64,000 nucleotides of DNA from Deltaproteobacteria bacterium (GTDB lineage: Bacteria > Desulfobacterota > WTBG01 > CAIYCZ01 > CAIRTM01). Positions 178 to 49,423 of the stretch are shown piece by piece (position 1 is the first letter of the stretch; the number at the start of each line of letters is the position of its first letter). Both the position numbers and the translations under genes were made by a program. Below the pieces are notes generated by a model. The model was not told where the DNA came from. It did not search any database and saw nothing but the letters and a program-made list of their open reading frames with translations. The stretch is taken from assembly GCA_024276465.1 (NCBI GenBank), contig JAJRXD010000018.1, positions 18,997-82,996 on the forward strand. The letters are read 5' to 3'.

Positions 178-777
178 TCAGCTTTGCTCTATTATTGTCC
201 TGCCCAGACTGCAGGCCTCTTCAATGATTTCAGGATGTTTTAAAACAGCCCCCTTTGAATCGATATTCCTGTATACAAGATAGCGGGTAAAGTCAATATT
301 CAACACGTCAAAAAAGTAACGGACTGTTAGAAAAATTCCATCAAAATTTTTTTTACCTTTGGAACCGCTTACGGAGAGAAAAACACCTTTGCCCTTCTCC
401 CCCCTCACATCGCCGGGTTTTTTGTTAAGCAGGTATTTTTTTACCCAGAAACACTGGCACCTGTCAACCATTGCTTTTGCACAGGCATTAAGCCCATAGA
501 AAAAAACCGGGGCGGAGAATACGACCATATCAGATTCAGTTAAAAGCGAATAAACACTTTGCATGTCGTCTTTGAGAACACATTTTCCAGTGTTGTCACA
601 TCCACCGCATTCGATGCAGGGTGAAAACTCAAGATCCCTGATGAATATCTCATTTACATTTACATCGTGCTCTTTAATGCCGCGGAGGAATGCTTTCAAC
701 AGCAGATCCGTGTTGCCGTTTTTTCTCGGGCTACCGTATATGGCAGTTATGTTCATTTCAATGTTCAGCTCAATCAA
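178..777 (-). CDS. NADPH-dependent FMN reductase / iron-sulfur flavoprotein-like (flavodoxin fold)
   Basis: Translation begins MNITAIYGSPRKNGNT. Flavodoxin-like FMN reductase pattern. Compact Cys cluster CIECGGCDNTGKC as in Isf-type iron-sulfur flavoproteins. Confidence 0.6.
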   Translation of the reverse strand: MIELNIEMNITAIYGSPRKNGNTDLLLKAFLRGIKEHDVNVNEIFIRDLEFSPCIECGGCDNTGKCVLKDDMQSVYSLLTESDMVVFSAPVFFYGLNACAKAMVDRCQCFWVKKYLLNKKPGDVRGEKGKGVFLSVSGSKGKKNFDGIFLTVRYFFDVLNIDFTRYLVYRNIDSKGAVLKHPEIIEEACSLGRTIIEQS

Positions 778-2164
778 GATTAATATTAATCTTTAAACTT
801 TTTGCAGCCATATCAACAACTGGAAGGACTGGCGCGTCTTTGCCTAAGAGAAAATTTGCTACTGACTGGGGGTATGAGCGATAGCGCAAAACAGCTTTCA
901 CGTCAAGATGTCCTTTTGTGTTTTTTGGCACCAGGAATGAATAGTTTTCAATAGCTGAGCCCTTGGGGGGAATGGTCCTGTTGTATTCGAACCTGGTCAT
1001 CTCCCAGGGCTTGACAGTGTGTTTTCCGTCCTTGTCCACAGAATATGCATTAAATATCCTGGAATCTTTTTCTATGTTTCCCTGGGCATCAAGAGCGCCT
1101 GAACTGAAAATATTTTTTCCATTTTTGTCTGTCACCCTGACATCTAACCACATCTGCCTTACCTCGGTCAGGCTTGTGGGCAGGTTGTGCCCTGCTCCTA
1201 TGTTGGTTACCTTAACATTTACGGTGACCATACCGCCTGGTTTAGATGATTGAGGAGCCATAAGTTTCAGCTCAGCAGCGCTTTTAAGGCGTGCTTCAGC
1301 GATTCCGGCATGTTTTTCAGAGCCCAGAAGGGCAGGGACAGTAAAGTTTGCACCAACAAATTCGTGCGTAAACATGTTGTCCCGGTCAGGACCATTGATG
1401 CAGGGTTTGCCGGGGTTTTTGGGCCTTTTGAGGGTTTTCGCAGCCTCAATGGCCTTTTCAACAGGCATCATGTGACAATCCTGGCATTGAATACCTTTCT
1501 GTGCGTAAACAGAATACTTCCATTCGTCGTAGGTTCTCTCAATATGAAAGTTGTTAATTGGGTGAAAAACCTGATGACAGTTTGCACAGAATTCAGATTT
1601 TGTGTGCAGCTCGGAATATGCTGTTTCATGGTGGGGCGACTCTGAGTCCTTGTATGGCCCCCTTTTCACGTTACCCGGAGCAAGGACAATCGAGGCATTT
1701 TGCGGCTCATTGGTCGGGGTTTTATGGGATGAACTTTCTTTAATCGTGTGACACAGGTCACAGTGAACACCTTCTTTTGCAATGTCGCTGGTTTGAAATT
1801 CACCATTTTTAAAAGTCAGGTCATTTGATACAACACCAACTCCTGCGTGGCAGCCACCACAAAGGTTGTCAGTCAACCCGTCAGTTTCCTTTGCACCCAG
1901 TTTCCAGAGAGCTGTAAATACAGGGTCAACAAAAGCATTAGAGTGCATAGAGCCTTTCCACTGTTTGTAAATCTCTGTATGACAACCTGAACAGACGAGC
2001 GAAGACTCAAAATCGCTGGATTTTACTGCCTTTCCTGTGTCGGTATTAATGAGCGACGGGAAAAAAGGGTGTTTTTTATTTTCAGCCTCACCTGCATAAA
2101 GCATGAAGCTGAAAAACAGAAAACAGGTCAGACATGTTAATGTAATAAAAAAGCGTTTTACCAT
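770..2164 (-). CDS. multiheme c-type cytochrome, secreted
   Basis: N-terminal signal peptide. At least five CxxCH haem-binding motifs: CSGCH, CGGCH, CDLCH, CANCH, CQDCH. Confidence 0.75.
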   Translation of the reverse strand: MVKRFFITLTCLTCFLFFSFMLYAGEAENKKHPFFPSLINTDTGKAVKSSDFESSLVCSGCHTEIYKQWKGSMHSNAFVDPVFTALWKLGAKETDGLTDNLCGGCHAGVGVVSNDLTFKNGEFQTSDIAKEGVHCDLCHTIKESSSHKTPTNEPQNASIVLAPGNVKRGPYKDSESPHHETAYSELHTKSEFCANCHQVFHPINNFHIERTYDEWKYSVYAQKGIQCQDCHMMPVEKAIEAAKTLKRPKNPGKPCINGPDRDNMFTHEFVGANFTVPALLGSEKHAGIAEARLKSAAELKLMAPQSSKPGGMVTVNVKVTNIGAGHNLPTSLTEVRQMWLDVRVTDKNGKNIFSSGALDAQGNIEKDSRIFNAYSVDKDGKHTVKPWEMTRFEYNRTIPPKGSAIENYSFLVPKNTKGHLDVKAVLRYRSYPQSVANFLLGKDAPVLPVVDMAAKSLKININLD

Positions 2165-2197
2165 TTTAACCTCCTTAAACTTTGCTGAAATAATTCA

Positions 2198-2587
2198 TTA
2201 TTTACTGCATTCAGGGCATATTCCCATGAACTCAAGTCTGTGTCCAATCACTTTGTATCCGCATGTTCTGCTGATACTTTTGTCCAGGCTTTGTATCCGG
2301 TCCAGGTCAACATCGTCAACCTTGCCACAGTCAAGGCACCTGATATGATAATGCTCTTCAGGGTTGCCGTCAAATCTCTTTTGCCTTCCTCCTACTTCAA
2401 TCTTCTGTACCAGCCCCTGGTCAGTCAGAAATTCTAAATTTCGATAAACTGTTGCCAGGCTGATCCTTGGCAACCTCTGCCTTACCTGGTCGTAAAGCTC
2501 ATCAGCGCTTGGATGTGTTCTTACGGACTTTAATTCTTCAAGAATAACTTCACGCTGGTGGGTTATTCTCGGTTTGCCATGTTTCAT
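2198..2587 (-). CDS. perR: Fur-family transcriptional regulator (PerR-like)
   Basis: 129 aa. C-terminal CxxC...CxxC zinc motifs (CLDCG...CPEC). His-rich metal site. Sits immediately upstream of dfx and rbr, as in PerR regulons of anaerobes. Confidence 0.7.
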   Translation of the reverse strand: MKHGKPRITHQREVILEELKSVRTHPSADELYDQVRQRLPRISLATVYRNLEFLTDQGLVQKIEVGGRQKRFDGNPEEHYHIRCLDCGKVDDVDLDRIQSLDKSISRTCGYKVIGHRLEFMGICPECSK

Positions 2588-2758
2588 TGTTTGCTACACT
2601 AATATTGGCGACTTTGTCAAAAGTCCTTCTGCTTCGCTGTAACCTTCCGGATCCGGCAGGGACGAAGTAATAACAACTAAGGGCTCTGCGAACCATGTGC
2701 CCGGAGCTTTTTACTCTGTCGTCTGTTTCCCGGCTTTTTACGGGATCACCAAGCTTTT

Positions 2759-3136
2759 TTAATCATTTTTCCACATTCCATGAACGTTACAGTAAGCGCG
2801 GACACTCTTTATATTGCCATCAATAACAAAGCTTGCCTCAGGCTTTCCACCGGGCTTAAGATATTCACGATAGAGCTTACTGTCAGTTAAAACTCCAATA
2901 ACTTCAATATAGTGGTTTTCCTCCATGGGGTGTGAAACACTGCCAACTTTTACAGTTACGTTAGCACCGTTTTTTTCAACAACAGGTACATGCTTTTCTT
3001 TTGCTGCATCAACACTGTTTTCTATCTGCTGGTTCATCTCCTGTCCACAGCAGATCAAATTTCCTGCCGCAGCATGTATGATGCCTGCTATGTTGCCACA
3101 CTTGTCGCATTTGTAAACCTCGTTTTGCTGTGTCAT
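2759..3136 (-). CDS. dfx: desulfoferrodoxin (superoxide reductase, class I)
   Basis: 125 aa. N-terminal desulforedoxin-like CxxC...CC site (CDKCGN...LICCG). C-terminal neelaredoxin domain (HYIEVIG...CNVHGMW). Confidence 0.85.
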   Translation of the reverse strand: MTQQNEVYKCDKCGNIAGIIHAAAGNLICCGQEMNQQIENSVDAAKEKHVPVVEKNGANVTVKVGSVSHPMEENHYIEVIGVLTDSKLYREYLKPGGKPEASFVIDGNIKSVRAYCNVHGMWKND

Positions 3137-3167
3137 GGTTTGTCTCCTAAAAACTATGTTTAGTGTT

Positions 3168-3749
3168 TTAAAAATTTTCTGCCATTATTTCAAAGTATGC
3201 TTTTGGATGATTACACGCAGGGCATTTTTCAGGTGCACCAGGTGCTTCAATAACTCTGCCACATTTGCGGCACCTCCATTTTACGGTTTTGTCCTTTTTG
3301 AATACTGTTTTGTTTTCGATATTCTCTCTCAAAGATTGATAACGGTTTTCATGCTCTTTTTCAGCCTCTGCTATCTGCCGGAAGCTCTCTGCTATGCCCG
3401 GGAACCCCTCTTCATCTGCTGTTTTTGCAGCCTCGGGATAAAGCTTTGTCCACTCCTCATTCTCGCCAGCAATTGAAGCCTTCAGGTGACTGAGAGTATC
3501 AGCAAAAACTACAGGGTAGGATGCATTGACATCCACTTCAGCTTCACCTAAATTATCAGCAAGATGTCTGAAAAATGTTTTGGCATGCACCCCCTCATTA
3601 TCAGCAGTGTCAAGGAAAATTGAAGCTATCTGTTCATAGCCCTCCTTTTTTGCAGTACTGGCAAAAAAGGTATACCTGTTACGTGCCTGTGATTCACCTG
3701 CAAAAGAATTCATCAAGTTACACATGGTTTTACTGCCTTTAAAATCCAT
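3168..3749 (-). CDS. rbr: rubrerythrin
   Basis: 193 aa. Ferritin-like di-iron domain (E..H motifs). C-terminal rubredoxin-like CxxC...CxxC (CRKCG...CPACNHP). Confidence 0.85.
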
Positions 3750-22140: not shown

Positions 22141-23463
22141 TTATTTTAAGATTTTTTTTGCAAAAACAATATCAGTCCGTATCTGTTCGGCCAGAGTTTT
22201 TGCTTCTTTAAATTTTTTCTCACCTCTGATTCGTTTAACAAAAAAGAGAGTAATTTCTTCGCCGTAGATGTTTTTACTGAAGTCAAAAATGTGTACTTCT
22301 ATGGTTGTTTTTTTTTCATCAAATGTGGGGTTCATTCCTATATTGACCACCCCGCTGAACATTCCGTATGATGTTGATATGGATGCAGCATAAACTCCAT
22401 CAGCAGGGATGAGATCCCTGCTGTAAGGTTTCAGGTTGGCAGTAGGAAAACCTATTTTTCTTTTTCTGCCATGTATGACTTTTCCCGTCATGCTGTAATG
22501 CCTGCCCATCAGTTTTTGAGCCAGAGAGACTTTTCCTGAAGAAATAAGGTTCCTGATTGTGGTACTGCGCACAGGGATGTTTTTCATTCTCATGTCACTT
22601 GCAACATGAACCTGAAAATCAAATACCCTGCCCATTTTTTTCAGCAGTTCCACAGCTCCTTTTCTGTTTTTGCCAAAAGCATAGTCATTGCCGATAACAA
22701 TTTCCCTGGGATGGATACGATCGCATATAATTTTTTTTATAAACTCCTCGGGAGATTTTTCTGAAAACTTTTTTGTGAAATTCTCACATATCAGGTAGTT
22801 GATACCAAACTCCTCTAAAATAGATGCCTTTTCTTCAAATGTGGTAAGCTTTAAAGGTTCATGGCCTGGATTAAGGACACTTAAAGGATGAGGATCAAAA
22901 GTATACACAGCTGACACTCCATTAACTGCCCTTGCCCGCTGAATTGTTTTTTTCAATATTTTTTGATGACCAAGATGGACTCCATCAAAGTTCCCAAGGG
23001 TAATAACAGGATTTGTCAGGTCATATTCTTTTATCTTTTTGCTGCCCCTTATGATCTGCATTTCTGAGCCTGATGTTATAAACATTTTTGTTGTAGCGCT
23101 TGCTACAGTAGAACCGTTCTCTTTATACACTGTTGCCCTGACATAAAGAATTTTTTTTTTAACTGCCTCTATTTCAGCTTCGCAGCAAAGCTGTTCATTT
23201 ACTTTTGCAGGGGCTTTAAATTTGGCGCTGATTTCCCCTGTGAGTATCCTGAACCCTTTTTTTACCGCGGCCTTTGCCATTGTCTCATCCAGGAGGGTAA
23301 CAATTATCCCTCCGTGTACAACGTCCTTCCAGCCCTGATATTTAGCGTCCGGCACAAATGTTGTCTTAACTTTTTTTCCGTCCGGCGAGTAGATAAACTT
23401 CAGCTTCAGGCCGTCAGGATTATCATTGCCGCAGGCAAAGCATTTATTATTATCTATAAGCAT
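22141..23463 (-). CDS. ribF: hotdog (PaaI-like) thioesterase domain fused to bifunctional riboflavin kinase/FMN adenylyltransferase
   Basis: N-terminal ~140 aa hotdog fold ([17 protein letters not shown]). Then the RibF nucleotidyltransferase motif ([11 protein letters not shown]) and a C-terminal riboflavin kinase. Confidence 0.7.
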
Positions 23464-23846: not shown

Positions 23847-24116
23847 ATGATAAAGCGAAATTATTTATTGTGTTTTGAATTCAAAGAATGCACCATGACG
23901 GAATGCCCTGCCTATAATAATGTAGAAAAAGACGAGTGCTGGCTTATTCCAAAAACACTGTGTAAAGACCTTTTAACAGATGAAAGACGACCAAAGGAGA
24001 CAATGGATAAATTAGACACTTGTTTTAGTAAATGTGAATATTTCAGGGCAAGAAAGGCGATAGAATTGAATACCGGACAGGACATAGATGCTAAATTCTA
24101 TCAAATTCTAAAATGA
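23847..24116 (+). CDS. hypothetical Cys-rich small protein
   Basis: 89 aa with 7 Cys. No recognised motif. Confidence 0.3.
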   Translation: MIKRNYLLCFEFKECTMTECPAYNNVEKDECWLIPKTLCKDLLTDERRPKETMDKLDTCFSKCEYFRARKAIELNTGQDIDAKFYQILK

Positions 24117-24598
24117 GTCCTTATAAAAACAACACTACTTAAACCATCAGAAAAAATCTGTTTAGCTGTTCACGGGCACCTGCCCACCCACCCCTTTATG
24201 CTGCGCTTTGCTCATCATTCGCCATTATGACGAAAGAACAGGTTTGCCTGTGGAAGATCCCGGTCAGCCTGGGGATTGCTCATGATTTCATGTGCCCCTG
24301 CAAGTGTGATTTTCAACTTTCATGCCGGACATTTTTGAGCAGCCCCATTGAAATTACTTTGTTAACGCCCCTACCCCCCCGCCCTTTTCTTGCTGTAATA
24401 AAAGGGAAAATGTGCGTCAAGGCACAAATAAAGATTAACAACTTATTGTTTATGCTTGACATTTCTTCCTGTTGTTGTAACAGTATGTTATTCTTTATTA
24501 GCAGGACACTTCAGGTTTGCAAAACAGAGCATGGATTTTGAATTGTCCTTAGCGGCATCAGGAAAATGCATCTTGAAAAGCCAGGGAGGAGTGATGTT

Positions 24599-25027
24599 AT
24601 GTCCGTAACAAAACAATTACCAATAGTTTTAGTGCTGTTTTTTACATGTCTTTGTTCTGCAGCAGAGGTAAAAGATGATGAGCTAAGTGCTTACAAGGTA
24701 ATCCTTCTCCATTATTCAGGGGCAATTGCACAGCCATGGACAACTGTTAAGCCTGGTACAACAGTAATCTGGGTGAATAATTCAAATGAAACATTACAGA
24801 TTTGCTTTGAAGGCCAGCAGGTTTCATTAGCCTGTAAAAGTCCCGTGCATTTTATCAGGGGTGAAAATGGCTCTTTTACATCAAGGCAGATTCCCCAGGG
24901 AGCAGTAGCAAGTCTATGCTTTGTGGAAAAGGGTGAATATAAGTATGTTGCAAGAAAGATAGCTTCCGGATCAGAAAAATCTTATTTAGGGGTACAGTAT
25001 TTTAAGGGCAAGATTATAGTGAAATAA
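24599..25027 (+). CDS. small secreted protein, paralog A of unrecognised family
   Basis: Signal peptide. RBS GGGAGGAG. Conserved core PGTTVIWVN...ACKSPVHF...GAVASLCF.E.G.Y.Y...F.GKIIVK, shared with the ORFs at 25094 and 30677. Confidence 0.65.
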   Translation: MSVTKQLPIVLVLFFTCLCSAAEVKDDELSAYKVILLHYSGAIAQPWTTVKPGTTVIWVNNSNETLQICFEGQQVSLACKSPVHFIRGENGSFTSRQIPQGAVASLCFVEKGEYKYVARKIASGSEKSYLGVQYFKGKIIVK

Positions 25028-25093: not shown

Positions 25094-25549
25094 ATGAAAA
25101 AAACCGTACTGTTTTGTATTGCTGTATTGATGTTCCTTGCCGTAAGCGATGTTGTGTTTTCCGAGCAGGCAGCAGAAAACAAAGATATCCATAAAAAAAC
25201 TGTGGATATTAAGAGCCGCGTGGTTAGAATAGAGGGATTTGAGGGGGTTAACCCCCTTAACCTTTTTATAGAGCCAGGTACGGTTGTCATATGGCTTAAT
25301 CAGTATTACGGGGATGTTGGAGTAAAGTTTCCTGATAAAAAAGTGACAATGGCCTGTAAGAGCCCTGTAAACTTTTCAGTGAATAAAGACGGAGTGTATG
25401 TATCAAACCCTATTGGATATGGAGCTGTGGCAAGTTTGTGCTTTTTAGAGCGCGGCACCTATAAATATTTCATGGAGCGCTCAAATCCGAGCAGAAGACA
25501 GACAACATCGGATCATTTCCGGTTTGAGGGAAAGATTGTTGTAAAATAA
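25094..25549 (+). CDS. small secreted protein, paralog B
   Basis: Signal peptide. RBS AAGGGAGGA. Core is the same as paralog A: PGTVVIWLN...ACKSPVNF...GAVASLCF...GKIVVK. Confidence 0.65.
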   Translation: MKKTVLFCIAVLMFLAVSDVVFSEQAAENKDIHKKTVDIKSRVVRIEGFEGVNPLNLFIEPGTVVIWLNQYYGDVGVKFPDKKVTMACKSPVNFSVNKDGVYVSNPIGYGAVASLCFLERGTYKYFMERSNPSRRQTTSDHFRFEGKIVVK

Positions 25550-25727: not shown

Positions 25728-27482
25728 AGAATGTGCCTCATGGACATGGTTAGAGACATACGCACAAGTAAAAAAAATGTTATTATCCTTTTTATCGTAA
25801 CAATTCAGATACCCCTGCTGCTGCTTATGGCAGCGCAATCATTTTCTGTCAATATCGGTGATCCTTTCCCATCGTTTTCAGAGCCAAACAACCTCAGTTC
25901 TGATGAATGCTTCAGTCTTGGGATAGAATGTGGAGAAGAATTCAGTATTGATGATTTAGTACAGGAATGCATTGTTATGGAGTTTCTGAATGTTTACTGC
26001 CATACATGCAGAATGCAGGTTGAGGTATTTAATGATCTTTTTCATGCAATTGAAAAAGATCCCGTGCTTTTAGAAAAAGCGTGTGTGTTTGGGATTGCGG
26101 TCGGAAACTCTCCTGAAGAGGTTGATGAGTTCAAGAGGGATTTCGGGGCAGTTTATCCTATTGTGGCAGATCCGGAAAAAAAAGTATTCAACCTTACTGG
26201 AAATACAGAGGGAACACCTCATACCTACATTCTCAGAAAAGAGGAAATAAATTTTGTTATTGACTACCATGCCGGAGGGGTTTCTTCCATGGACAGGTAT
26301 CTTTCGAGGATTAAATTATCTGTACGCGGCAGCTTCACAGGGACAGAACCGGGAAACAAAGCACCAGGATATTCTTTCAACTCCGGGGGCATGGTTTTTG
26401 ATGAAAAAAACTTTGCCGGCAACAGGCTAATACTTTATTTTCCTGCTGACAGAAAGTTTTCACTGGAGATAGACACAAGGAATACGGAAAATCAAATTAA
26501 AGTTCTGTATAAGATTTTAAATAAATTTCCAGGGATCACTGTAATATTATTTAAGTCTCCCGGGTTTTCCCCTGATCTGGAGAAAAAATATGAAACCCCC
26601 TCTTTTTATTTTGGAGAACCGGCAGATAAAGAAGTTGCTGAAACCTTTGCATCCCCTGACAAACCTTCAATATACTATATTAACCAGCATGGAAGGATTG
26701 CATTCAAGGGCGATGCAATAACGCTTTATAATGCTCAGAACATCCTGGAAACAGTTGAATATAAGCCGTCTCCACCAATGAATGAACGAGACGTTATAAG
26801 ATTAATAGATGAGCGGATAAAAAAGCTTGGCAGGAAAGTCTTTACAACTGAAAAATTTATAATGGAAAACGGGGAAAAAATCTATGTTACAGCGCTGTCC
26901 CCAGAGCGCAACAGAGCTTTTTTGTTTTCACGATTTGAAAGCAAGCCAAGCCTGTGTGATGTCTGCCACGACAGCCATTTCATATATGTTTTAGACCCGG
27001 AAGGTAAAATAGTGGATTTCATACCGGTTTCCATGACAAAAAAAGATAATATTTTATGGTCAGAAAAAGATGAGCAGAAGATCAAAAGTCTGATTGTTGG
27101 AAAAAGTATTTTTGATAATTTTCCATTTAATCCACGCGTTGATGCAGTATCAACCGCTACAATGACCTCAAGCCTGGTTTTTGAGTCGCTGAACCAGGGG
27201 AAAGAAATTTTTGGGAAGTTCAAGGACTATCAATTTCGAAGTGACCACTGGAAAAAAGAGTGTTTCGGAAATATTTGTAAAATTGAGCAGAAAGCAGAGC
27301 AGATGAAAAAGGTTAATAAAAACTTTGTTTTTGATGATGCTGCATTGAACGCACTGGTTTCAGAAATGAAAATACCGGGATGTCCTCAGGGCGGCTTGCT
27401 GCTGGTTGTGGATGGCAAAGTGCTGTGCAGTTTCCATGGATTTAATACTGCTGGATGCAGGGGAAAAACAGCAGACAAATAA
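25728..27482 (+). CDS. secreted multi-domain redox protein: TlpA-like thioredoxin (CxxC), degenerate thioredoxin fold and C-terminal FMN_bind-like domain
   Basis: Signal anchor VIILFIVTIQIPLLLLMAA. Domain 1 has redoxin blocks IGDPFPSF, YCHTC and FGIAVG...EEVDEFKRDFGAVYPIVADPEKKVF. Domain 2 is thioredoxin-like without Cys. The C-terminus carries VDAVSTATMTSS, which resembles the DxxSGAT flavinylation motif of FMN_bind domains (NqrC/RnfG/NosR). The ORF opens at 25644; the first plausible start is 25728. Confidence 0.55.
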   Translation, partial: RMCLMDMVRDIRTSKKNVIILFIVTIQIPLLLLMAAQSFSVNIGDPFPSFSEPNNLSSDECFSLGIECGEEFSIDDLVQECIVMEFLNVYCHTCRMQVEVFNDLFHAIEKDPVLLEKACVFGIAVGNSPEEVDEFKRDFGAVYPIVADPEKKVFNLTGNTEGTPHTYILRKEEINFVIDYHAGGVSSMDRYLSRIKLSVRGSFTGTEPGNKAPGYSFNSGGMVFDEKNFAGNRLILYFPADRKFSLEIDTRNTENQIKVLYKILNKFPGITVILFKSPGFSPDLEKKYETPSFYFGEPADKEVAETFASPDKPSIYYINQHGRIAFKGDAITLYNAQNILETVEYKPSPPMNERDVIRLIDERIKKLGRKVFTTEKFIMENGEKIYVTALSPERNRAFLFSRFESKPSLCDVCHDSHFIYVLDPEGKIVDFIPVSMTKKDNILWSEKDEQKIKSLIVGKSIFDNFPFNPRVDAVSTATMTSSLVFESLNQGKEIFGKFKDYQFRSDHWKKECFGNICKIEQKAEQMKKVNKNFVFDDAALNALVSEMKIPGCPQGGLLLVVDGKVLCSFHGFNTAGCRGKTADK

Positions 27483-27550
27483 GCAGTTCAGGAACAGTTC
27501 ACAATTAAGAAAAAAAACAGGATTTTTTACATATACATATTACCAATAAT

Positions 27551-28025
27551 ATGCTCATGCTTTTTTTTATGCTTTTTCAAATCAACTGCCTGGAGTGCGA
27601 TTGATTTTTCCCTTAAAAATGTAAAGGATGGGACAACCTTTAAACTTGCTGACTACAGGAATAAAATAATTCTTGTAACTTTTGGTTCCATATATTGCAA
27701 GCCCTGCATAGAACTTCTGCCTGTTCTGAACAGGCTTCATGAAAACTACAAGACTTCTGATGTTCTGATAATCGGGGTAGATATTGACAGAACATCAGCT
27801 GAAAAAGAGATTAGAGAGTTTGCCAGTAAAAAGAAGATACTTTTCCCTTTTTTTATAGATACGGAAAATGCTGCAAGAAAATGCAAGGTTTTTGTGCTTC
27901 CCACAGTTCTTCTTATAGATGGAAGTGGTGTGGAAGTTAAAAGGTTTGTAGGTGGCAAGCCCTACGCAACCCTTGAAAAAGAAATTAATAAGATAGCCGT
28001 GAAGTTACAGGCTGGCAGTAAATGA
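27551..28025 (+). CDS. TlpA/ResA-like thiol:disulfide oxidoreductase, frameshifted
   Basis: The frame 27483-28025 encodes ...LVTFGSIYCKPC...VFVLPTVLLIDGSGVEV, a thioredoxin fold, but contains no ATG. An ATG at 27551 (MLMLFF) is in the +2 frame and meets a stop after 17 codons. Dropping one T from the T8 run at 27561-27568 fuses the two into signal peptide plus thioredoxin. Confidence 0.5.
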
Positions 28026-28127: not shown

Positions 28128-29048
28128 ATGCAGATTGGAATAGTCGGTCTGGGCCGTATGGGTATGAATATGACCAGGCGCCTGATGGGAGGCGGCCACA
28201 ATGTTGTAGTGTTTAACAGAACAGGGGAAAAAGTATTGCTGATGCAGAAGGAGGGTGCAACGGGTGCTGATTCAGCTGAAAAACTTGTGAAAATGCTCAG
28301 GCCACGCCGGATGATATGGCTGATGCTCCCTGCGGGGGATCCGGTTGATGAGTATGTAAAAAAATTTTCAGAGCTTCTGTCTCCTGGTGACATAGTGGTT
28401 GATGGTGGAAACAGTTATTACATGGACGACATCCGCCACAGCAAAAGCCTGAAAGAAAAAGGTATAGATTATATTGACGCAGGTATTTCAGGCGGTATAT
28501 GGGGCCTTGAAAAAGGATACTGTACCATGATCGGAGGAGAGAAAAGGGTGTTCAGACACATGGAGCCGATTTTAGAAACCCTTGCACCAAAAGACGGCTA
28601 CATGTTCTGTGGCCCGACAGGCGCAGGCCATTTTGTCAAAATGGTTCACAATGTAATTGAATATGCAATGATGGAGGCATATGGTGAAGGGTTTGATATT
28701 ATTCAATCATCTCCTTACAGTGAAAATATATCACTTGACAGGTTGTCGCACCTCTGGAACCAGGGCAGTGTTGTAAGGTCGTGGCTTCTTGAGCTTTTGG
28801 AGTCGGCATTTAAAAAAGATTCAAAGCTGGAAAACATTAAGGGCTTTGTTGAAGATTCCGGTGAAGGGAGATGGACAGTGCAGCAGGCAATAGAGACCGG
28901 GACCCCAGCACCCGTTATTGCGCTTTCACTTTTCAGGAGGTTCGAATCACGCATTAAAGATTCTTTTTCCGACCGTGTTCTTGCTGCGCTCAGGAGAGAA
29001 TTTGGCGGCCATGCGGTCGTTGAATCTGAAAAAAACATTAAGAGATGA
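28128..29048 (+). CDS. gnd: 6-phosphogluconate dehydrogenase (decarboxylating), short form
   Basis: [15 protein letters not shown] Rossmann N-terminus and a Gnd-like body. GGAGA RBS lies 7 nt upstream of the ATG at 28128. Confidence 0.75.
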
Positions 29049-30604
29049 CCGGACAGAAAAGAGAAGATCTATCAGTCCTGAAGCCTGAGTTTGGCCGGGA
29101 AACTTCCGGAGAAAGCATGGATGATCAATGCAGGGAGGTCAGGCCGGCGGATCCGTGTGCCATTGTTATTATTGGTGCTTCAGGAGATCTGACTTCAAGA
29201 AAACTTATTCCCGCCCTTTACAGATTGTTTTTGAACGGCTACATGCCTGTTTCATTTGCCATAGTCGGATGTGCCAGGAAAAAGCTCGACAATGAAGCCT
29301 TCAGACAACTTGTAAAAGAATCCCTGGCAAAGGGGGTGGGGGATGATCTTTCAAAACTTGATCATTTTGCCGGCAATCTTTATTACAGGACAGTTGAATA
29401 TGATGATAAGGAAAATTTTAAAGAACTCTCCTGCTTTCTTTCCGATATTGACAAGAAACACGGGACTGCCGGGAACAGACTGTTTTATCTTGCAATTCCT
29501 CCTTTTCTGTATGAAACAGTAGTTCATGTTATGGGAGAGGCCGGTCTTTCTCGTGAAAGCAGGACCAGTGGCAGCTGGTCGCGTCTTGTGGTTGAAAAGC
29601 CCTTTGGGAGTGATCTCAAAACTGCTGTTAAACTGAATGATGTTATAAAGAGATGTTTCAGCGAACAGCAGGTTTACAGGATAGATCACTATCTGGCAAA
29701 GGAAACAGTACAGAATATACTGGTTTTCAGATTTGCCAATTCTATCTTCGAACCACTGTGGAACAGGCAGCATATTGAGCACGTAGAGATATCTGCTGCC
29801 GAAACCCTTGGTGTGGAGCACCGCGCAGGGTATTATGAAAAGTCCGGTATTTTAAGGGATATGTTTCAAAACCACATGATGCAGCTCCTGACTCTTGTTG
29901 CAATGGAGCCCCCTGCGCATTTCCGGCCTGAACCTGTAAGGGATGAAAAGGCAAAGGTTATCCAGTCGATAAGGCCCTTTGATCTGGAACATCTTGAAGA
30001 AAATATTGTGATCGGTCAATATTTATCAGGAAATATTGACGGTAAAAAAGTTCCTGCCTATCGTGATGAGACAGGTGTGGACCCCCTGTCTTTGACCCCT
30101 ACGTTTGCAATGATGAAGGTTTTTATTGACAACTGGCGCTGGCAGGATGTTCCCTTCTACCTGAGTTCGGGCAAGCGCCTGGCTGAAAAAAAGACAAAGA
30201 TTGTAATCCAGTTCAAAGACGTCCCGCACTCTATTTTTCGTGACATTATAGGTGGCAGCATAAGTGCCAACTGTTTGACATTTTTTATTCAGCCAATAGA
30301 AAAAATAGCGCTCACATTTCAGGCCAAAAAACCGGGGTCAACAATTTGTCCCCGTTCCATTAATATGGAATTCAGCTATGACAGTGATTCTGGAGAAACT
30401 CTTGAGGCTTATGAAAAAGTGCTTGTTGACTGCATGAACGGAGACCAGATGCTTTTTTTGCGTCAGGATCTGGAAGAACTGTGCTGGTCGTTTCTTACTC
30501 CATTAATAGAGGACTGTGAAAAGTGTGTTGATAAAAGCAGTTTGCTTCAGTTTTATGGATCAGGCACCCGGGGACCAGAAGGTGTGGAAAAATTAAAAAC
30601 ATAA
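29045..30604 (+). CDS. zwf: glucose-6-phosphate 1-dehydrogenase
   Basis: Motifs [13 protein letters not shown] and RIDHYLAKE. Translationally coupled to gnd (ATGA). Confidence 0.85.
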
Positions 30605-30676: not shown

Positions 30677-31141
30677 ATGAAAGTTAAAAGAATTACATCT
30701 GTCTTATTGACAATAACAGTTTTTTCATTTCTTTTTATCAGTGCAGCAATTAGTGAAGAAGGGAATATACATCCGGAAAAAAAGATTAAAGCCCATAAAA
30801 TCATCCGGCTTGATAAATTAGGTGTTATATTTCCTCCTGTGGCAACTGTTGAGCCAGGCACTACTGTCATCTGGGTAAATGATGCCAGGACAGCAGTAGA
30901 AATAAAGTTTGAGGGCAAACAGGTGACACTGGCATGCAAGAGCCCGGTTCATTTTATTGTTGATTCAGATGGTTCCTTCGTGTCTGACAAAATCCCTCAT
31001 GGAGCTGTTGCAAGCCTTTGCATGGTAGAGAGAGGTGAATTCAACTATGTAGCAAGGAAGGTGATACTCTGGGGAATCGATAACCTGAATTTATATCAGA
31101 GACCTGTCAGGGAATTCCGGGGGAAGATAATTGTAAAATAG
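30677..31141 (+). CDS. small secreted protein, paralog C
   Basis: Signal peptide. RBS AAAGAGGAGA. Core PGTTVIWVN...ACKSPVHF...GAVASLCM...GKIIVK. Confidence 0.65.
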   Translation: MKVKRITSVLLTITVFSFLFISAAISEEGNIHPEKKIKAHKIIRLDKLGVIFPPVATVEPGTTVIWVNDARTAVEIKFEGKQVTLACKSPVHFIVDSDGSFVSDKIPHGAVASLCMVERGEFNYVARKVILWGIDNLNLYQRPVREFRGKIIVK

Positions 31142-47071: not shown

Positions 47072-48030
47072 CTTAAAACTCCTAATACTTTTAAAAAATC
47101 ATCCGGCAAAGGAACTTTAAAAAAGAGGGTGGTTTTTTTTTCAGGGTGCATGAATTCAAGATACCCGGCGTGCAGGAGAGGTCTCCGGATTGTTTTTATA
47201 ATGTCCTGTATCTGTTTTGAACTAACAGACTTTAAAAGTTTTGGAGAGCTGTAAACCGGATCTCCTGCTATGGGGTGGTTGATGCTTTCAAGATGAACCC
47301 GTACCTGATGTGTCCTCCCGGTTTCAAGCATTGCTTCAAGAAAGCTGAAATTATCAAAAGTTTCTATTGTTTTCCAGTGGGTTACCGCATCCCTTCCTCT
47401 TTTTGGCTGCGCAGACATCTTCTTGCGGTGTATGGGGTGCCTGCCTATGGGGCTCTTTACAGTACCTGAAATGTCATCCATTGTACCAAAAACAATGGCT
47501 TTGTATTTCCTTATAACAGTATGTTCTTTAAATTGACTGCTGAGGCTCAAGTGCGCCAGATCATTTTTTGCAACCACAAGAACACCGGATGTGCCTTTGT
47601 CCAGTCTGTGGACAATTCCAGGACGGACTACACCACCGATTCCGGAAAGTGTCCTGCAGTGATAGAGCAGAGCATTTACCAGCGTGCCTGAAAAATTACC
47701 GGAGCCAGGGTGAACAACCATTCCAGCCGGCTTGTTTACAACAACAACAGATGAGTCCTCGAACATAATTTCAACGGGAATGTTTTCCGGTTCAGCCTGA
47801 AGAGGAACAGGATCCGTTATGCTGATTTCCACAGTATCGCCAGTACAAACTTTATAAGATGCTTTTTGATTAATACTGTTGACCCAGACCCTGTTATCCT
47901 TTATTACATCCTGGATCTGGGACCGGCTTGGAAGAGATTTTTTTTCAAACAGAAAAACATCAAGTCTTTTGCGCGAATTTTCTTCAGTGACTTTGTAATT
48001 GTGCTTTTGCACTTTTTGCAACCTCAACAA
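47059..48030 (-). CDS. rluD: RluA-family 23S rRNA pseudouridine synthase (RluD-like)
   Basis: S4 domain and the catalytic HRLDKGTSGVLVVAKN motif. The ORF start overlaps the selA 3' end by 47 nt. Confidence 0.8.
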   Translation of the reverse strand: MLRLQKVQKHNYKVTEENSRKRLDVFLFEKKSLPSRSQIQDVIKDNRVWVNSINQKASYKVCTGDTVEISITDPVPLQAEPENIPVEIMFEDSSVVVVNKPAGMVVHPGSGNFSGTLVNALLYHCRTLSGIGGVVRPGIVHRLDKGTSGVLVVAKNDLAHLSLSSQFKEHTVIRKYKAIVFGTMDDISGTVKSPIGRHPIHRKKMSAQPKRGRDAVTHWKTIETFDNFSFLEAMLETGRTHQVRVHLESINHPIAGDPVYSSPKLLKSVSSKQIQDIIKTIRRPLLHAGYLEFMHPEKKTTLFFKVPLPDDFLKVLGVLRCSV

Positions 48031-49423
48031 TACAACCTGGAATCAGGGAAACCTCATCCGGAAGGATGGTTCGCATATCAAGTAAAATCCTCTCTTTGCT
48101 GATGCGGGCGACGATTGGTAATGTGCCTGTCCTGAGAAGATTCTCAAACTCATTAAGCGCAAGAGGGGCAGGGTCAATTGAAACCACCCACGTGGGCAGA
48201 TCATGCAGCGGATATGCTCCTCCTCCGACCTGAGATGTGTCCCGGGTCAGAGAGACGTTTTGAAAAGGTGTTTGTTCTTTAACTGCTTTAACTATTTTTT
48301 TTGCTCTCTTTTTTAAAAGAGATTCTGAAGCAGCAAGCATTCTGATAACCGGAATATTATCAATATGTTCCGGGTTATGAGCATAGTTTTTAAGCGTTGA
48401 TTCAAGCGCGGCCAGGGTCAGCTTGTCAATTCTCACAACCCTGGCAAGCGGATTCCTTTTTATCTTTTGTATAAACATGTCCCTGCCCAGAATTATTCCT
48501 GCCTGGGGTCCGCCAAGGAGTTTGTCCCCACTGAATGTTATGATATCAGTACCGCTCTTAACCGTATCCTGAACGGTCAGGTCACCGGTTAAGCCAAGAA
48601 AAGAGGAATCAATCAAATTTCCGCTTCCCATGTCAAACATTACAGGAATATTATGTTCACTGCCAAGTTTATTAAGCTCAGAAAGCCCGACCTCAGATGA
48701 AAATCCGACAATTCTGTAATTGCTCATATGAACTTTTAGAATTATGGCGGTCTGTTCGTTTATTGCTTCTCTGTAATCCCTGAGGTGTGTTCTGTTGGTT
48801 GAACCAACTTCAACTAAAGTTGCGCCACTTTGCTTCATGATATCGGGTATTCTGAAACTTCCGCCGATCTCAACAAGTTCACCCCGCGATATTATTACCT
48901 GTTTTCCCTGTGCCAGAGTGCTCAGGCACAAAAGGACTGCAGCAGCATTATTGTTGACCGCCAACCCTGCTTCTGAACCGGAAAGCTCTCTCAACAGGCT
49001 CTCAACATGATCGTAACGGGACCCGCGTTTTCCCTCTTTGAGATCAAATTCCAGATTGCTGTAGCATCCTGCAACCCCGCATATTGCTTTAACTGCATCT
49101 TCAGCAAGAGGTGCTCTGCCTAAATTTGTGTGAACAACTATTCCACTTGCATTGATTACATGTTTCAGGGATGGCGCTTCGATCTCTCTGATTTTTGCTT
49201 TAATTTGGGGCAAAGCTGTTTTCAGGGATAATTCCTTCTCAAACTGGCAGGGCTCTTTCATTGACAGCATTCGGTTTCTCTTTTCGGTCAGGAGCAGATG
49301 GATTGCCTTAACTATCATGGTGTGGGAAAATTGCAGCAGCAATGCCTGAACATCAGTTGTGTTGAGTATTTCATCAACTGAAGGAATTCTTCTCAGATAC
49401 TGGTTGTTATTTGCAGCCGGCAT
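47984..49423 (-). CDS. selA: L-seryl-tRNA(Sec) selenium transferase
   Basis: SelA-length PLP enzyme of 479 aa. SelA-like N-terminus. Conserved Lys region. Confidence 0.75.
   Translation of the reverse strand: MPAANNNQYLRRIPSVDEILNTTDVQALLLQFSHTMIVKAIHLLLTEKRNRMLSMKEPCQFEKELSLKTALPQIKAKIREIEAPSLKHVINASGIVVHTNLGRAPLAEDAVKAICGVAGCYSNLEFDLKEGKRGSRYDHVESLLRELSGSEAGLAVNNNAAAVLLCLSTLAQGKQVIISRGELVEIGGSFRIPDIMKQSGATLVEVGSTNRTHLRDYREAINEQTAIILKVHMSNYRIVGFSSEVGLSELNKLGSEHNIPVMFDMGSGNLIDSSFLGLTGDLTVQDTVKSGTDIITFSGDKLLGGPQAGIILGRDMFIQKIKRNPLARVVRIDKLTLAALESTLKNYAHNPEHIDNIPVIRMLAASESLLKKRAKKIVKAVKEQTPFQNVSLTRDTSQVGGGAYPLHDLPTWVVSIDPAPLALNEFENLLRTGTLPIVARISKERILLDMRTILPDEVSLIPGCIVEVAKSAKAQLQSH

Follow-up and report, generated by a model that had tools for sequence, protein, structure and literature searches.

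The window, by which we mean the whole 64-kb stretch of DNA analysed here, carries on its plus strand a fusion gene whose coding sequence (25731..27482) begins at ATG 25731 and specifies a protein of 583 aa. Translation of the window places the surrounding open frame between 25644 and a stop codon at 27480-27482, and alternative starts are available at ATG 25740, ATG 25746 and GTG 25683, the last of which is the start of a 100% identical database entry (NCBI protein P0001, 599 aa). The original prediction had described an open reading frame at 25728-27482, and it is indeed present there; position 25728 is the Arg codon directly before ATG 25731, and residues are numbered throughout with this codon as residue 1. 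The product is made up of five parts, namely a signal peptide, two thioredoxin folds, an FMN_bind-like domain and a C-terminal Cys/His domain, and is conserved among uncultured sulfate-reducer relatives. Roughly 90 full-length homologs share 34-61% identity with it, and the conservation counts given below refer to 46 members of the long family, 56 members of a shorter sister family (the short family) and 9-11 very distant homologs, which are only 20-27% identical.

The first of the five parts (25731..25847, +), inspected against the family alignment, has the features of a Sec-type signal peptide (…KKNVIILFIVTIQIPLLLLMAAQSFS / VNIGDPFP), with a basic n-region, a hydrophobic core and an AxA-like site just before GDPFP, invariant in homologs; the same inspection revealed no twin-arginine motif in this peptide. 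Sec-type signal peptides with AxA-like cleavage sites recur family-wide, which supports the extracytoplasmic location that had been anticipated for the protein. As such, we propose from these sequence features that the gene product is a Sec-exported, soluble periplasmic redox protein. Because the signal peptide is of the Sec type, any flavin cofactor must be attached once the protein has been exported, which is how ApbE works. A scan of the locus for promoters and terminators returned signals at chance level only.

The fusion gene lies in a cluster of conserved order: a cupredoxin-like small protein, the fusion gene, a TlpA-like small protein, gnd and zwf. The upstream partner (25094..25549, +) encodes a secreted protein of ~150 aa that weakly resembles cupredoxins and has two invariant Cys; paralogs are found at 24566-25027 and 30677-31141, and in several architectures, very distant ones included, the gene immediately before the fusion gene is a member of this group. 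The downstream partner (27504..28025, +) encodes a small secreted TlpA/ResA-like protein with a CKPC motif, for which no ATG, GTG or TTG is present in frame and ATT 27504 is a candidate start; its homolog directly follows the fusion gene in at least 13 loci. Beyond it lie gnd (6-phosphogluconate dehydrogenase; 28128-29048, +) and zwf (glucose-6-phosphate dehydrogenase; 29045-30604, +), whose products are cytoplasmic sources of NADPH. Nearby genes encode rubrerythrin, a Fur-family regulator, a c554-type multihaem cytochrome, desulfoferrodoxin, FMN_red and a flavodiiron protein, and O2 defence is thus represented near the fusion gene. The nearby ribF was rejected as a functional partner, since it is not conserved in homolog neighbourhoods. 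Elsewhere among the relatives, a multihaem cytochrome gene is followed after 32 bp by a short-family gene, and one distant paralog is found directly downstream of an NqrBCDEF-like cluster.

Thioredoxin domain 1 (25848..26336, +) is of the TlpA/ResA/DsbE type and adopts a TlpA/AhpC-TSA-type thioredoxin fold with a CxxC at a helix N-terminus and a cis-Pro loop. Its redox-active motif, C91-H-T-C94 (25998..26009, +), is invariant as CHTC in the long family (46/46); the Cys pair is invariant in the short family (56/56) and in distant subfamilies, and T163-P164 of the cis-Pro loop shows no variation either. Both the Pfam match and the structural matches, the foremost of which are disulfide oxidoreductases, bear out the earlier assignment of this domain as a thioredoxin with a CxxC, and its best family match is to the ResA/TlpA-type reductants. 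Domain 2 (26337..26771, +; aa 204-348) is free of cysteines, and an invariant D249-x-R251 (26472-26480) occupies the position of the CxxC; P313, N319, G322 and R323 are conserved as well. Its order of secondary structure in the AF2 model is that of a TlpA-like fold. Domain 2 of the window protein itself has no Pfam match, and comparison of the family's two thioredoxin domains by hhalign was not significant (E 0.17 over 19 columns); segments of distant full-length homologs aligned to domain 2 score 38-62 bits on AhpC-TSA. Since the same segment of these homologs matches AhpC-TSA, domain 2 is a thioredoxin fold by transitive homology, and this, along with the AF2 topology, agrees with the Cys-less repeat of the fold that had been predicted.

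Homologs of the fusion protein appear in databases as 'TlpA family protein disulfide reductase', 'redoxin domain-containing protein' or 'peroxiredoxin', and AhpC-TSA/Redoxin is the only domain of the protein above Pfam thresholds. Both observations would suit an ordinary TlpA/ResA-type reductase or peroxiredoxin supplied by CcdA/DsbD from elsewhere, with extra domains that are structural or client-binding and take no redox role. Identity as a peroxiredoxin can be rejected, the active site EFLNVYCHTC being a CxxC of the TlpA/ResA type with no peroxidatic PxxxT/SxxC motif, and none of the 12 Pfam-annotated neighbourhoods contains DsbD/CcdA (PF02683). With the conservation and the apbE context described below also counting against it, we regard this explanation as very unlikely.

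An RnfG/NqrC-type FMN_bind-like domain follows (26772..27227, +), which in the predicted structure combines an antiparallel sheet with two helices in an RnfG/NqrC-like fold. Pfam FMN_bind (PF04205) scores 15.0 bits on the window protein (E 0.041), below the 22-bit gathering cut-off, and matches below the cut-off are also seen in 25/46 homologs of the long family and 23/56 of the short one, the best at E 1.4e-4. When the flavin-domain profile was compared with E. coli RsxG by hhalign, the match was not significant (E 0.4), with D472…T478 aligned to DQFTGAT of RsxG. The prediction of a C-terminal FMN_bind-like domain therefore holds for the relationship, at the level of the fold, and fails for the placement, since the stretch then quoted covers aa ~385-482 and the Cys/His domain comes after it; similarly, of the two matches suggested for hmmscan, AhpC-TSA/Redoxin rose above threshold and PF04205 stayed below. 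Most stand-alone 'CxxC-FMN_bind' matches represent fragments of genes, or genes split by a frameshift.

The flavinylation-type motif, whose coordinates were confirmed by translation together with those of CHTC and CDVCH, is D472-A-V-S-T-A-T478 (27141..27161, +), and its last residue, Thr478, is from the sequence the predicted FMN acceptor. In the AF2 model the last helix (478-495) begins with this Thr. Conservation in the long family is close to absolute (D472 46/46, A477 45/46, T478 46/46, S/T480 46/46), and the motif Thr is kept in 54/56 short-family members, so that the loss of this Thr in orthologs, once raised as grounds for abandoning the assignment, is not observed. The Gly-to-Thr change (STAT) was read correctly and is general for the subfamily: the Gly position is T25/Q8/S6/M5/A2 in the long family (Gly 0/46) and Gly in only 6/56 of the short family, and distant paralogs retain the canonical SGAT/TGAT motif. 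According to a review, another ApbE substrate in which this Gly was changed to Ala was still ~50% flavinylated (PMC12052999). Documented tolerance of replacement at the motif Gly is confined to Gly-to-Ala. In solved structures the residue at T+2 hydrogen-bonds flavin N3 (PMC10339131, PMC4348036), and the Ser or Thr that always occupies T+2 in the long family therefore meets this need.

With respect to the enzyme that might attach the flavin, two MAG contigs (L051 and L052) carry an apbE gene (Tat-signal, PF02424) that immediately precedes a TSAT short-family gene in the same orientation. No apbE was found in the 64-kb window by Pfam on ORFs of at least 110 aa and by tblastn, nor around roughly 45 of the 47 related loci, most of them covered for 10 kb on either side; the tblastn queries, E. 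coli ApbE and a deltaproteobacterial ApbE, were run against the window and ~50 loci. Pfam likewise returned no ApbE, DsbD or Rnf/Nqr among ~55 window ORFs. The adjacency of apbE in two relatives favours flavinylation, and it also argues against the ordinary reductase considered above.

The flavin domain also contains an invariant CxxC(H), at aa 410-414, that the earlier reading overlooked. This second CxxC with its His (C410-D-V-C413-H414, or CDVCH; 26955..26969, +) has both Cys invariant in all subfamilies; indeed, C91, C94, C410 and C413 are each invariant across the 46 long, 56 short and 9-11 very distant homologs. The predicted structure places C410 and C413 on a loop between strands 398-406 and 416-422, where the CxxC precedes the second of these strands by 2-5 residues. 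In the structures of SaFMN3-D2, CbFMN4-D1 and CPE2226, the corresponding loop supplies the residues that stack on the flavin, namely Tyr14, Tyr11 and His44 (PMC10339131), and in NqrC its Leu149 and Trp150 contact the flavin (PMC4348036). The predicted proximity of the Cys pair to the flavin, and of one Cys pair to the other, is derived from secondary-structure equivalence with solved structures. The invariance of C410, C413 and T478 through very deep divergence is an argument for catalytic roles, and against an ordinary TlpA/ResA-type reductase with redox-inactive appendages.

CxxCH is the attachment motif of haem c, and a flavin-less fold might be envisaged in which C410, C413, H414, D415 and H417 serve as ligands of a metal (Zn, Fe or Cu) or of a c-type haem. 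The protein would then be thioredoxin-like and dependent on that metal or haem, or would act as a metallochaperone alongside its cupredoxin-like neighbours. Ligands could also come from C512, C552, C567 and H570 of the C-terminal domain (27228..27479, +; aa 501-584), which spans ~85 aa as two helices and a hairpin, conserves F503, R504, W508, C512, C552-P, G556, C567 and H570-G571, and has further cysteines, C517 and C577, in close relatives only. Besides these extra conserved Cys and His, such a reading would draw on the presence of CxxCH in 45/46 members of the long family and 48/56 of the short one, on the invariance of H417 in the long family, on the loss of the flavinylation-motif Gly in the subfamily and on a window without apbE. 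The flavin-domain profile, moreover, weakly matches haem sites of multihaem cytochromes, but these CxxCH sites are its only matches among PDB sequences and lie at chance level (E 0.9-1.5, not significant). Both Cys are retained without exception, yet the distant long, the medium and some of the short members have T, S, P, R, E, Q or Y in place of the His after the CxxC, so haem ligation cannot be the conserved function of the family, and haem c attachment as the general role of CxxCH was rejected. H417, for its part, is retained in only 40/56 of the short family. Binding of a metal or haem would leave the invariant D…A-T-[MI]-[ST]-S motif without explanation, and the apbE-adjacent relatives again speak for flavinylation. 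We therefore consider this alternative improbable, if less so than the ordinary reductase.

With a confidence slightly better than even, we favour a periplasmic intramolecular relay of covalent FMN and two cysteine pairs, running FMN/CxxC/thioredoxin CxxC, for which we infer the FMN attachment, the relay geometry and the direction of electron flow. The cofactor would be FMN bound covalently at Thr478, the predicted acceptor. Judging from topology, its isoalloxazine ring would pack against the preceding loop that carries C410-x-x-C413 and His414, and because of this packing the flavin could directly reduce or oxidise the C410/C413 disulfide. FAD and an adjacent CxxC exchange directly in thioredoxin reductase, AhpF and Erv/QSOX enzymes. 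C91-H-T-C94 of domain 1 would then exchange with C410/C413, a pairing supported by the fact that ResA-type domains classically recognise a CxxCH motif. From domain 1, electrons might be handed to clients, for which the downstream CKPC TlpA-like protein and the upstream two-Cys cupredoxin-like protein are candidates, and the Cys-less domain 2 may act as a spacer or client-binding module. The structure model, with pTM 0.79 for the full length and 0.88 for the C-terminal half, suggests fixed packing between the domains.

TlpA-like folds include both oxidants and reductants, and the direction of flow is held with lower confidence than the relay itself. The flow that we prefer would lead from a periplasmic or membrane one-electron donor to FMN and on to the thiols, the candidate donors being a multihaem cytochrome and an Nqr-like complex that draws on NAD(P)H; the outcome would be DsbD/CcdA-independent reducing power for the repair or protection of envelope proteins under oxygen stress. 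Run in reverse, the same relay would constitute a QSOX-like periplasmic sulfhydryl oxidase passing electrons from C91/C94 to C410/C413, then to FMN and finally to cytochromes or O2, with clients such as the small TlpA-like or cupredoxin-like proteins and a role in disulfide introduction or in O2 consumption in the periplasm of an anaerobe. This reversal is unlikely, although we rate it above the two alternatives already discussed: NADPH-generating zwf and gnd and the one NqrF-containing Nqr-like module fit delivery of electrons to the periplasm and not their removal, and domain 1 best matches a family of reductants.

The proposed relay, a CxxC-bearing flavin module coupled to a thioredoxin, points to an undescribed extracytoplasmic passage of electrons between flavin and disulfide. 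More tentatively, and at somewhat less than even confidence, the fusion protein may represent an unrecognised class of extracytoplasmic flavin-dependent thiol:disulfide oxidoreductase, in which ApbE-attached FMN would act directly on a built-in CxxC and link one-electron carriers of the periplasm, either multihaem cytochromes or an Nqr-like module driven by NAD(P)H, with the two-electron chemistry of dithiols.

Set beside known systems, the fusion protein departs from each in several respects. RnfG/NqrC and other ApbE-flavinylated FMN_bind proteins (PF04205) define a domain for which the fusion protein falls below the Pfam threshold, with the motif Gly changed to T, Q, S, M or A; its invariant CxxC(H) in the flavin-stacking loop is absent from E. 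coli RsxG, from an NqrC-like protein of a related MAG and from the solved domains; and RnfG and NqrC are subunits of membrane complexes, whereas here the flavin-type domain is joined to thioredoxin folds. TlpA, ResA and CcmG (DsbE) are single-domain proteins fed by CcdA or DsbD, in contrast to this multi-domain protein with neither gene nearby, and the dipeptide of its CHTC is unusual. AhpF and NTRC-like fusions of thioredoxin reductase to thioredoxin follow a logic like that of the proposed relay, from flavin to a proximal CxxC to the CxxC of a tandem thioredoxin module. AhpF and the fusion protein share, moreover, a tandem thioredoxin pair with one redox-active fold and a small AhpC/TSA-family partner encoded adjacently. 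However, AhpF is cytoplasmic and NADH-dependent, with non-covalent FAD in a TrxR-type domain, whereas the fusion protein has the unrelated FMN_bind fold, is extracytoplasmic and lacks a nicotinamide site; the likeness is one of analogy and not homology. QSOX is likewise secreted and has the same order of a CxxC thioredoxin, a Cys-less thioredoxin and a flavin domain with an adjacent CxxC, but it is eukaryotic, reduces O2 and uses an Erv/ALR FAD domain, a flavin module with no relationship in sequence or fold to that of the fusion protein. Indeed, the flavin domain described here is homologous neither to TrxR-type FAD/NAD(P)H domains nor to the Erv/ALR four-helix bundle.

Clusters of DsbD, DUF3570, thioredoxin-like, DUF4266 and ApbE genes have been proposed to combine thiol chemistry and flavinylation in extracytosolic electron transfer (Méheust et al. 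2021, PMC8238504). Those hybrid clusters encode separate proteins beside DsbD and ApbE, whereas the fusion is one polypeptide with a CxxC in its flavin site and a neighbourhood without DsbD; no published description of a Trx-FMN_bind fusion was found in the literature or in the part of the eLife supplement that was covered. The same work names cytochromes, thioredoxin-like proteins and ApbE-flavinylated proteins as the three main extracytoplasmic electron carriers and treats them as parallel and largely separate (PMC8238504). Through its extra CxxC, the fusion polypeptide would physically join the flavinylation-based and thioredoxin-based systems, and it hints at how strict anaerobes could drive thiol systems of the periplasm in the absence of DsbD/CcdA. 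It offers a test case for the tolerance of ApbE towards non-Gly motifs, which is relevant to flavin-tagging biotechnology, and a testable function for several hundred proteins that are now mislabelled 'peroxiredoxin' or 'TlpA family'. If the fusion protein does represent the more tentative new class named above, ApbE would accept motifs lacking the canonical Gly, the protein would be a bacterial and convergent counterpart of AhpF and QSOX, and anaerobes would be able to power thiol repair in their envelope without DsbD or CcdA.

The fusion gene lies on the plus strand in a frame that is open from 25644 and ends with a stop codon at 27480-27482. The original prediction had placed its beginning at 25728; the reading frame holds, but that codon encodes the Arg immediately 5' of ATG 25731. 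Further in-frame ATGs occur at 25740 and 25746, and the identical NCBI protein (P0001, 599 aa) is started at GTG 25683. With codon 25728 numbered as residue 1, translation of sub-ranges places CHTC at 25998-26009, CDVCH at 26955-26969 and DAVSTAT at 27141-27161 (all +). The N-terminus is a Sec-type signal peptide, with a basic n-region, a 19-residue hydrophobic core, an SFS/V cleavage site and no twin-arginine motif; homologs carry an unmistakable AxA motif at the corresponding position, directly before an invariant GDPFP. The second domain (aa 204-348) contains no cysteines, and in the predicted structure the order of its secondary-structure elements copies that of domain 1. Its own sequence has no Pfam match and aligns with domain 1 at E 0.17 in hhalign. 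The proposal that it is a degenerate thioredoxin is nonetheless confirmed through transitive homology, because the segments aligned with it in distant full-length homologs all pass the AhpC-TSA threshold, with scores of 62, 59, 49, 49 and 38 bits. D249-x-R251 is invariant at the position expected for CxxC, and P313 (at the cis-Pro position), N319, G322 and R323 are likewise conserved.

Searched exhaustively with HMMER, 1.8 billion cluster representatives gave 733, 282 and 91 hits at E <= 1e-3, 1e-10 and 1e-30, respectively. Full-length homologs number roughly 90 (550-590 aa, 34-61% identity), every one of them from a metagenome or MAG of Thermodesulfobacteriota ('delta proteobacteria') except for one NC10 bin. 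The HMMER search also returned a larger sister family of ~370 aa (the short family), matched by the query over two stretches, thioredoxin domain 1 and the flavin domain. Further architectures include a distant 'long' subfamily (520-550 aa, 20-27% identity) that keeps all four domains, and a 'medium' form (~450-480 aa) with both thioredoxin folds and the flavin domain, without the C-terminal extension. In databases these proteins go under 'peroxiredoxin', 'redoxin domain-containing' or 'TlpA family protein disulfide reductase'; apart from a partial ResA match, NCBIfam has no model for them. Long and short architectures often coexist as neighbours; at five loci (L005, L010, L015, L019, L020), a short-family paralog (~387 aa) is encoded near the long-family gene, on the other strand.

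The flavinylation motif reads D472-A-V-S-T-A-T478-M-T-S, and the predicted replacement of its Gly by Thr is borne out: Gly is absent from all 46 aligned long-family members, where the position holds T (25), Q (8), S (6), M (5) or A (2). The surrounding residues barely vary (D, T478, M479, S/T480 and S481 in 46/46, A477 in 45/46). The motif Thr is also kept in 54 of 56 short-family members, in which the 'Gly' position is S (26), T (10), G (6) or another residue. Canonical SGAT or TGAT is retained in the distant-long and medium forms; judged from these sequences, the domain was therefore probably a standard ApbE substrate ancestrally, and the long subfamily has replaced the Gly. In solved domains, the FMN-bearing Thr begins the last helix, the Gly gives the phosphate a backbone amide only, and T+2 hydrogen-bonds flavin N3 (PMC10339131; PMC4348036). 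In the fusion protein, T478 stands at the start of a predicted helix (478-495), and T+2 is always Ser or Thr. A Gly-to-Ala change in K. pneumoniae fumarate reductase is reported to leave ~50% flavinylation (reviewed in PMC12052999).

A second cysteine pair, C410-x-x-C413, which the original prediction had not mentioned, is invariant in every subfamily (46/46 long, 56/56 short and all distant members). In the predicted structure it occupies the loop joining strands 398-406 and 416-422, 2-5 residues ahead of the second strand. In the solved SaFMN3-D2, CbFMN4-D1 and CPE2226 domains, the matching loop holds Tyr14, Tyr11 and His44, which stack on the flavin; the corresponding loop of NqrC supplies Leu149 and Trp150 (PMC10339131; PMC4348036), and E. 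coli RsxG and an NqrC-like protein of a related MAG have GYSG and GFWG there, without Cys. By topological equivalence, the C410/C413 disulfide is predicted to lie against the flavin. Such is the arrangement of flavoprotein disulfide oxidoreductases. A rival explanation is a flavin-free metal or haem site, and the His directly after C413 (45/46 long, 48/56 short members) does lend the motif the look of a haem c site; however, distant and medium forms have T, S, P or R at this position, and some short members E, Q or Y, so haem ligation cannot be the conserved role. A flavin-stacking role for the His or Tyr would fit.

Folds, motifs, conservation and gene context together best support an exported flavin-dithiol relay, and beyond these we infer the following. 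FMN, attached by ApbE to Thr478, would exchange electrons with C410/C413, which would pass them to C91/C94 of the ResA-type domain and thence to clients, namely a CKPC protein and/or a two-Cys cupredoxin-like protein. A further rival is a plain TlpA-type reductase whose additional domains are inert. The strongest argument for the relay is the co-invariance of all five residues (four Cys and Thr478) over very deep sequence divergence.

None of the ~55 scanned ORFs of the 64-kb window is apbE, dsbD/ccdA or rnf/nqr. A flavin-domain profile search found two long MAG contigs, L051 (4392-6552) and L052 (4523-6513), in which apbE immediately precedes, in the same orientation, a short-family gene bearing the non-Gly motif T-S-A-T. 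The ApbE proteins carry a Tat signal (a Tat-type RR signal in L051) and PF02424, with 36% identity to E. coli Ftp over 89 aa. Frameshifts, probably errors of long-read assembly, interrupt both genes. This adjacency, which concerns a motif without Gly, is the sole direct link to flavinylation from gene context; apbE is absent within ±10 kb at the other ~45 loci, as is CcdA/DsbD from every annotated neighbourhood. On both contigs, the gene upstream of apbE encodes another kind of small secreted protein with two Cys (133/137 aa; TGYTCLTKGYICPIDK). The window encodes RibF, a bifunctional riboflavin kinase/FAD synthetase with a fused N-terminal hotdog (PaaI-like) thioesterase domain (22141-23463, -). 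Its product, FAD, is the ApbE substrate, but its location is probably coincidental, since ribF is not conserved beside the homologs.

A cluster recurring in many MAGs comprises a ~150-aa secreted two-Cys protein, the fusion gene, a ~170-aa secreted TlpA/ResA-like CxxC protein, gnd, zwf and a further ~150-aa paralog. The window holds every member, with three two-Cys paralogs of ~150 aa (24566-25027, 25094-25549 and 30677-31141, all +; two invariant Cys in ACKSPV.F and ASLCF) and gnd and zwf at 28128-30604. The two-Cys protein has no Pfam or NCBIfam family and resembles plastocyanin weakly (E 0.06), with the copper ligands missing. It is probably a functional partner or substrate of the fusion protein, because it also lies directly upstream of the Trx-flavin gene in medium and distant-long architectures, even at ~25% identity (L038, L039, L044, L045, L048). 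The TlpA/ResA-like gene (27504-28025, +; CKPC active site) follows the fusion gene's TAA in the same frame, in which no ATG, GTG or TTG start precedes 27894. ATT 27504, with AGGAA at 27490-27494, would yield an ideal signal peptide (IKKKNR…TAWSA/IDF); the absence of a usual start could reflect non-canonical initiation, a 1-nt error in a homopolymer or a genuine frameshift. Three ATGs (27551, 27557, 27569) lie beside T-runs in the +1 frame. The TlpA-like protein weakly matches NCBIfam selenoprotein redoxin models (WAxxUGC, TUGYCR), its active site having Cys and no UGA codon; the window encodes selenocysteine synthase SelA (47984-49423, -), and the organism therefore makes selenoproteins. Between ribF and the small secreted proteins is an 89-aa Cys-rich ORF (23847-24116, +) with a faint NCBIfam 'two-CW domain' match (E 0.0045).

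Around the conserved cluster are genes for rubrerythrin, PFOR, a Fur-family regulator, a c554-type multihaem cytochrome, a flavodiiron protein and FMN_red. At the left end of the window, an oxygen/ROS-defence cluster (178-3749, -) encodes an NADPH-dependent FMN reductase (FMN_red), a c554-type multihaem cytochrome (464 aa), a Fur-family regulator, desulfoferrodoxin and rubrerythrin; locus L001 has the same Fur/c554/FMN_red set 6-10 kb from its homolog. At one locus, 32 bp separate a multihaem cytochrome gene from the short-family gene downstream of it, and another short-family gene adjoins molybdopterin oxidoreductase, DsbA and cytochrome c peroxidase. On contig JANQFE010000014.1 (L048; 4495-11626), an NqrB/C/D/E/F-like set that lacks NqrA has downstream of it, in the same orientation, genes for a 155-aa protein, a cupredoxin-like protein of 149 aa and a distant full-length paralog with canonical SGAT (P0214). 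This 60-kb contig also carries long-family (P0006) and short-family (P0097) paralogs.

The periplasm is without NAD(P)H, so cytochromes or a membrane module must be the redox partners of the flavin. The relay could also run in the sulfhydryl-oxidase direction; the reductive direction is somewhat more likely in view of the O2-defence genes and NADPH-generating enzymes in the surroundings and of the Nqr-like neighbour, sequence alone not being decisive. AhpF follows the logic of the proposed relay, with a flavin, a CxxC close to it, two Trx folds in tandem of which one has an active CxxC, and an AhpC-family partner, and QSOX runs the same logic in reverse, but the flavin module here is related to neither. 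Our literature search found no description of a protein that fuses thioredoxin to FMN_bind, nor of an FMN_bind domain bearing CxxC, the closest published idea being a multi-protein DsbD/DUF3570/thioredoxin-like/ApbE cluster (Méheust et al., PMC8238504). The thioredoxin and FMN_bind blocks are each known; their combination and the modified flavin site are new, and bear on research into extracytosolic electron transfer and envelope thiol homeostasis.
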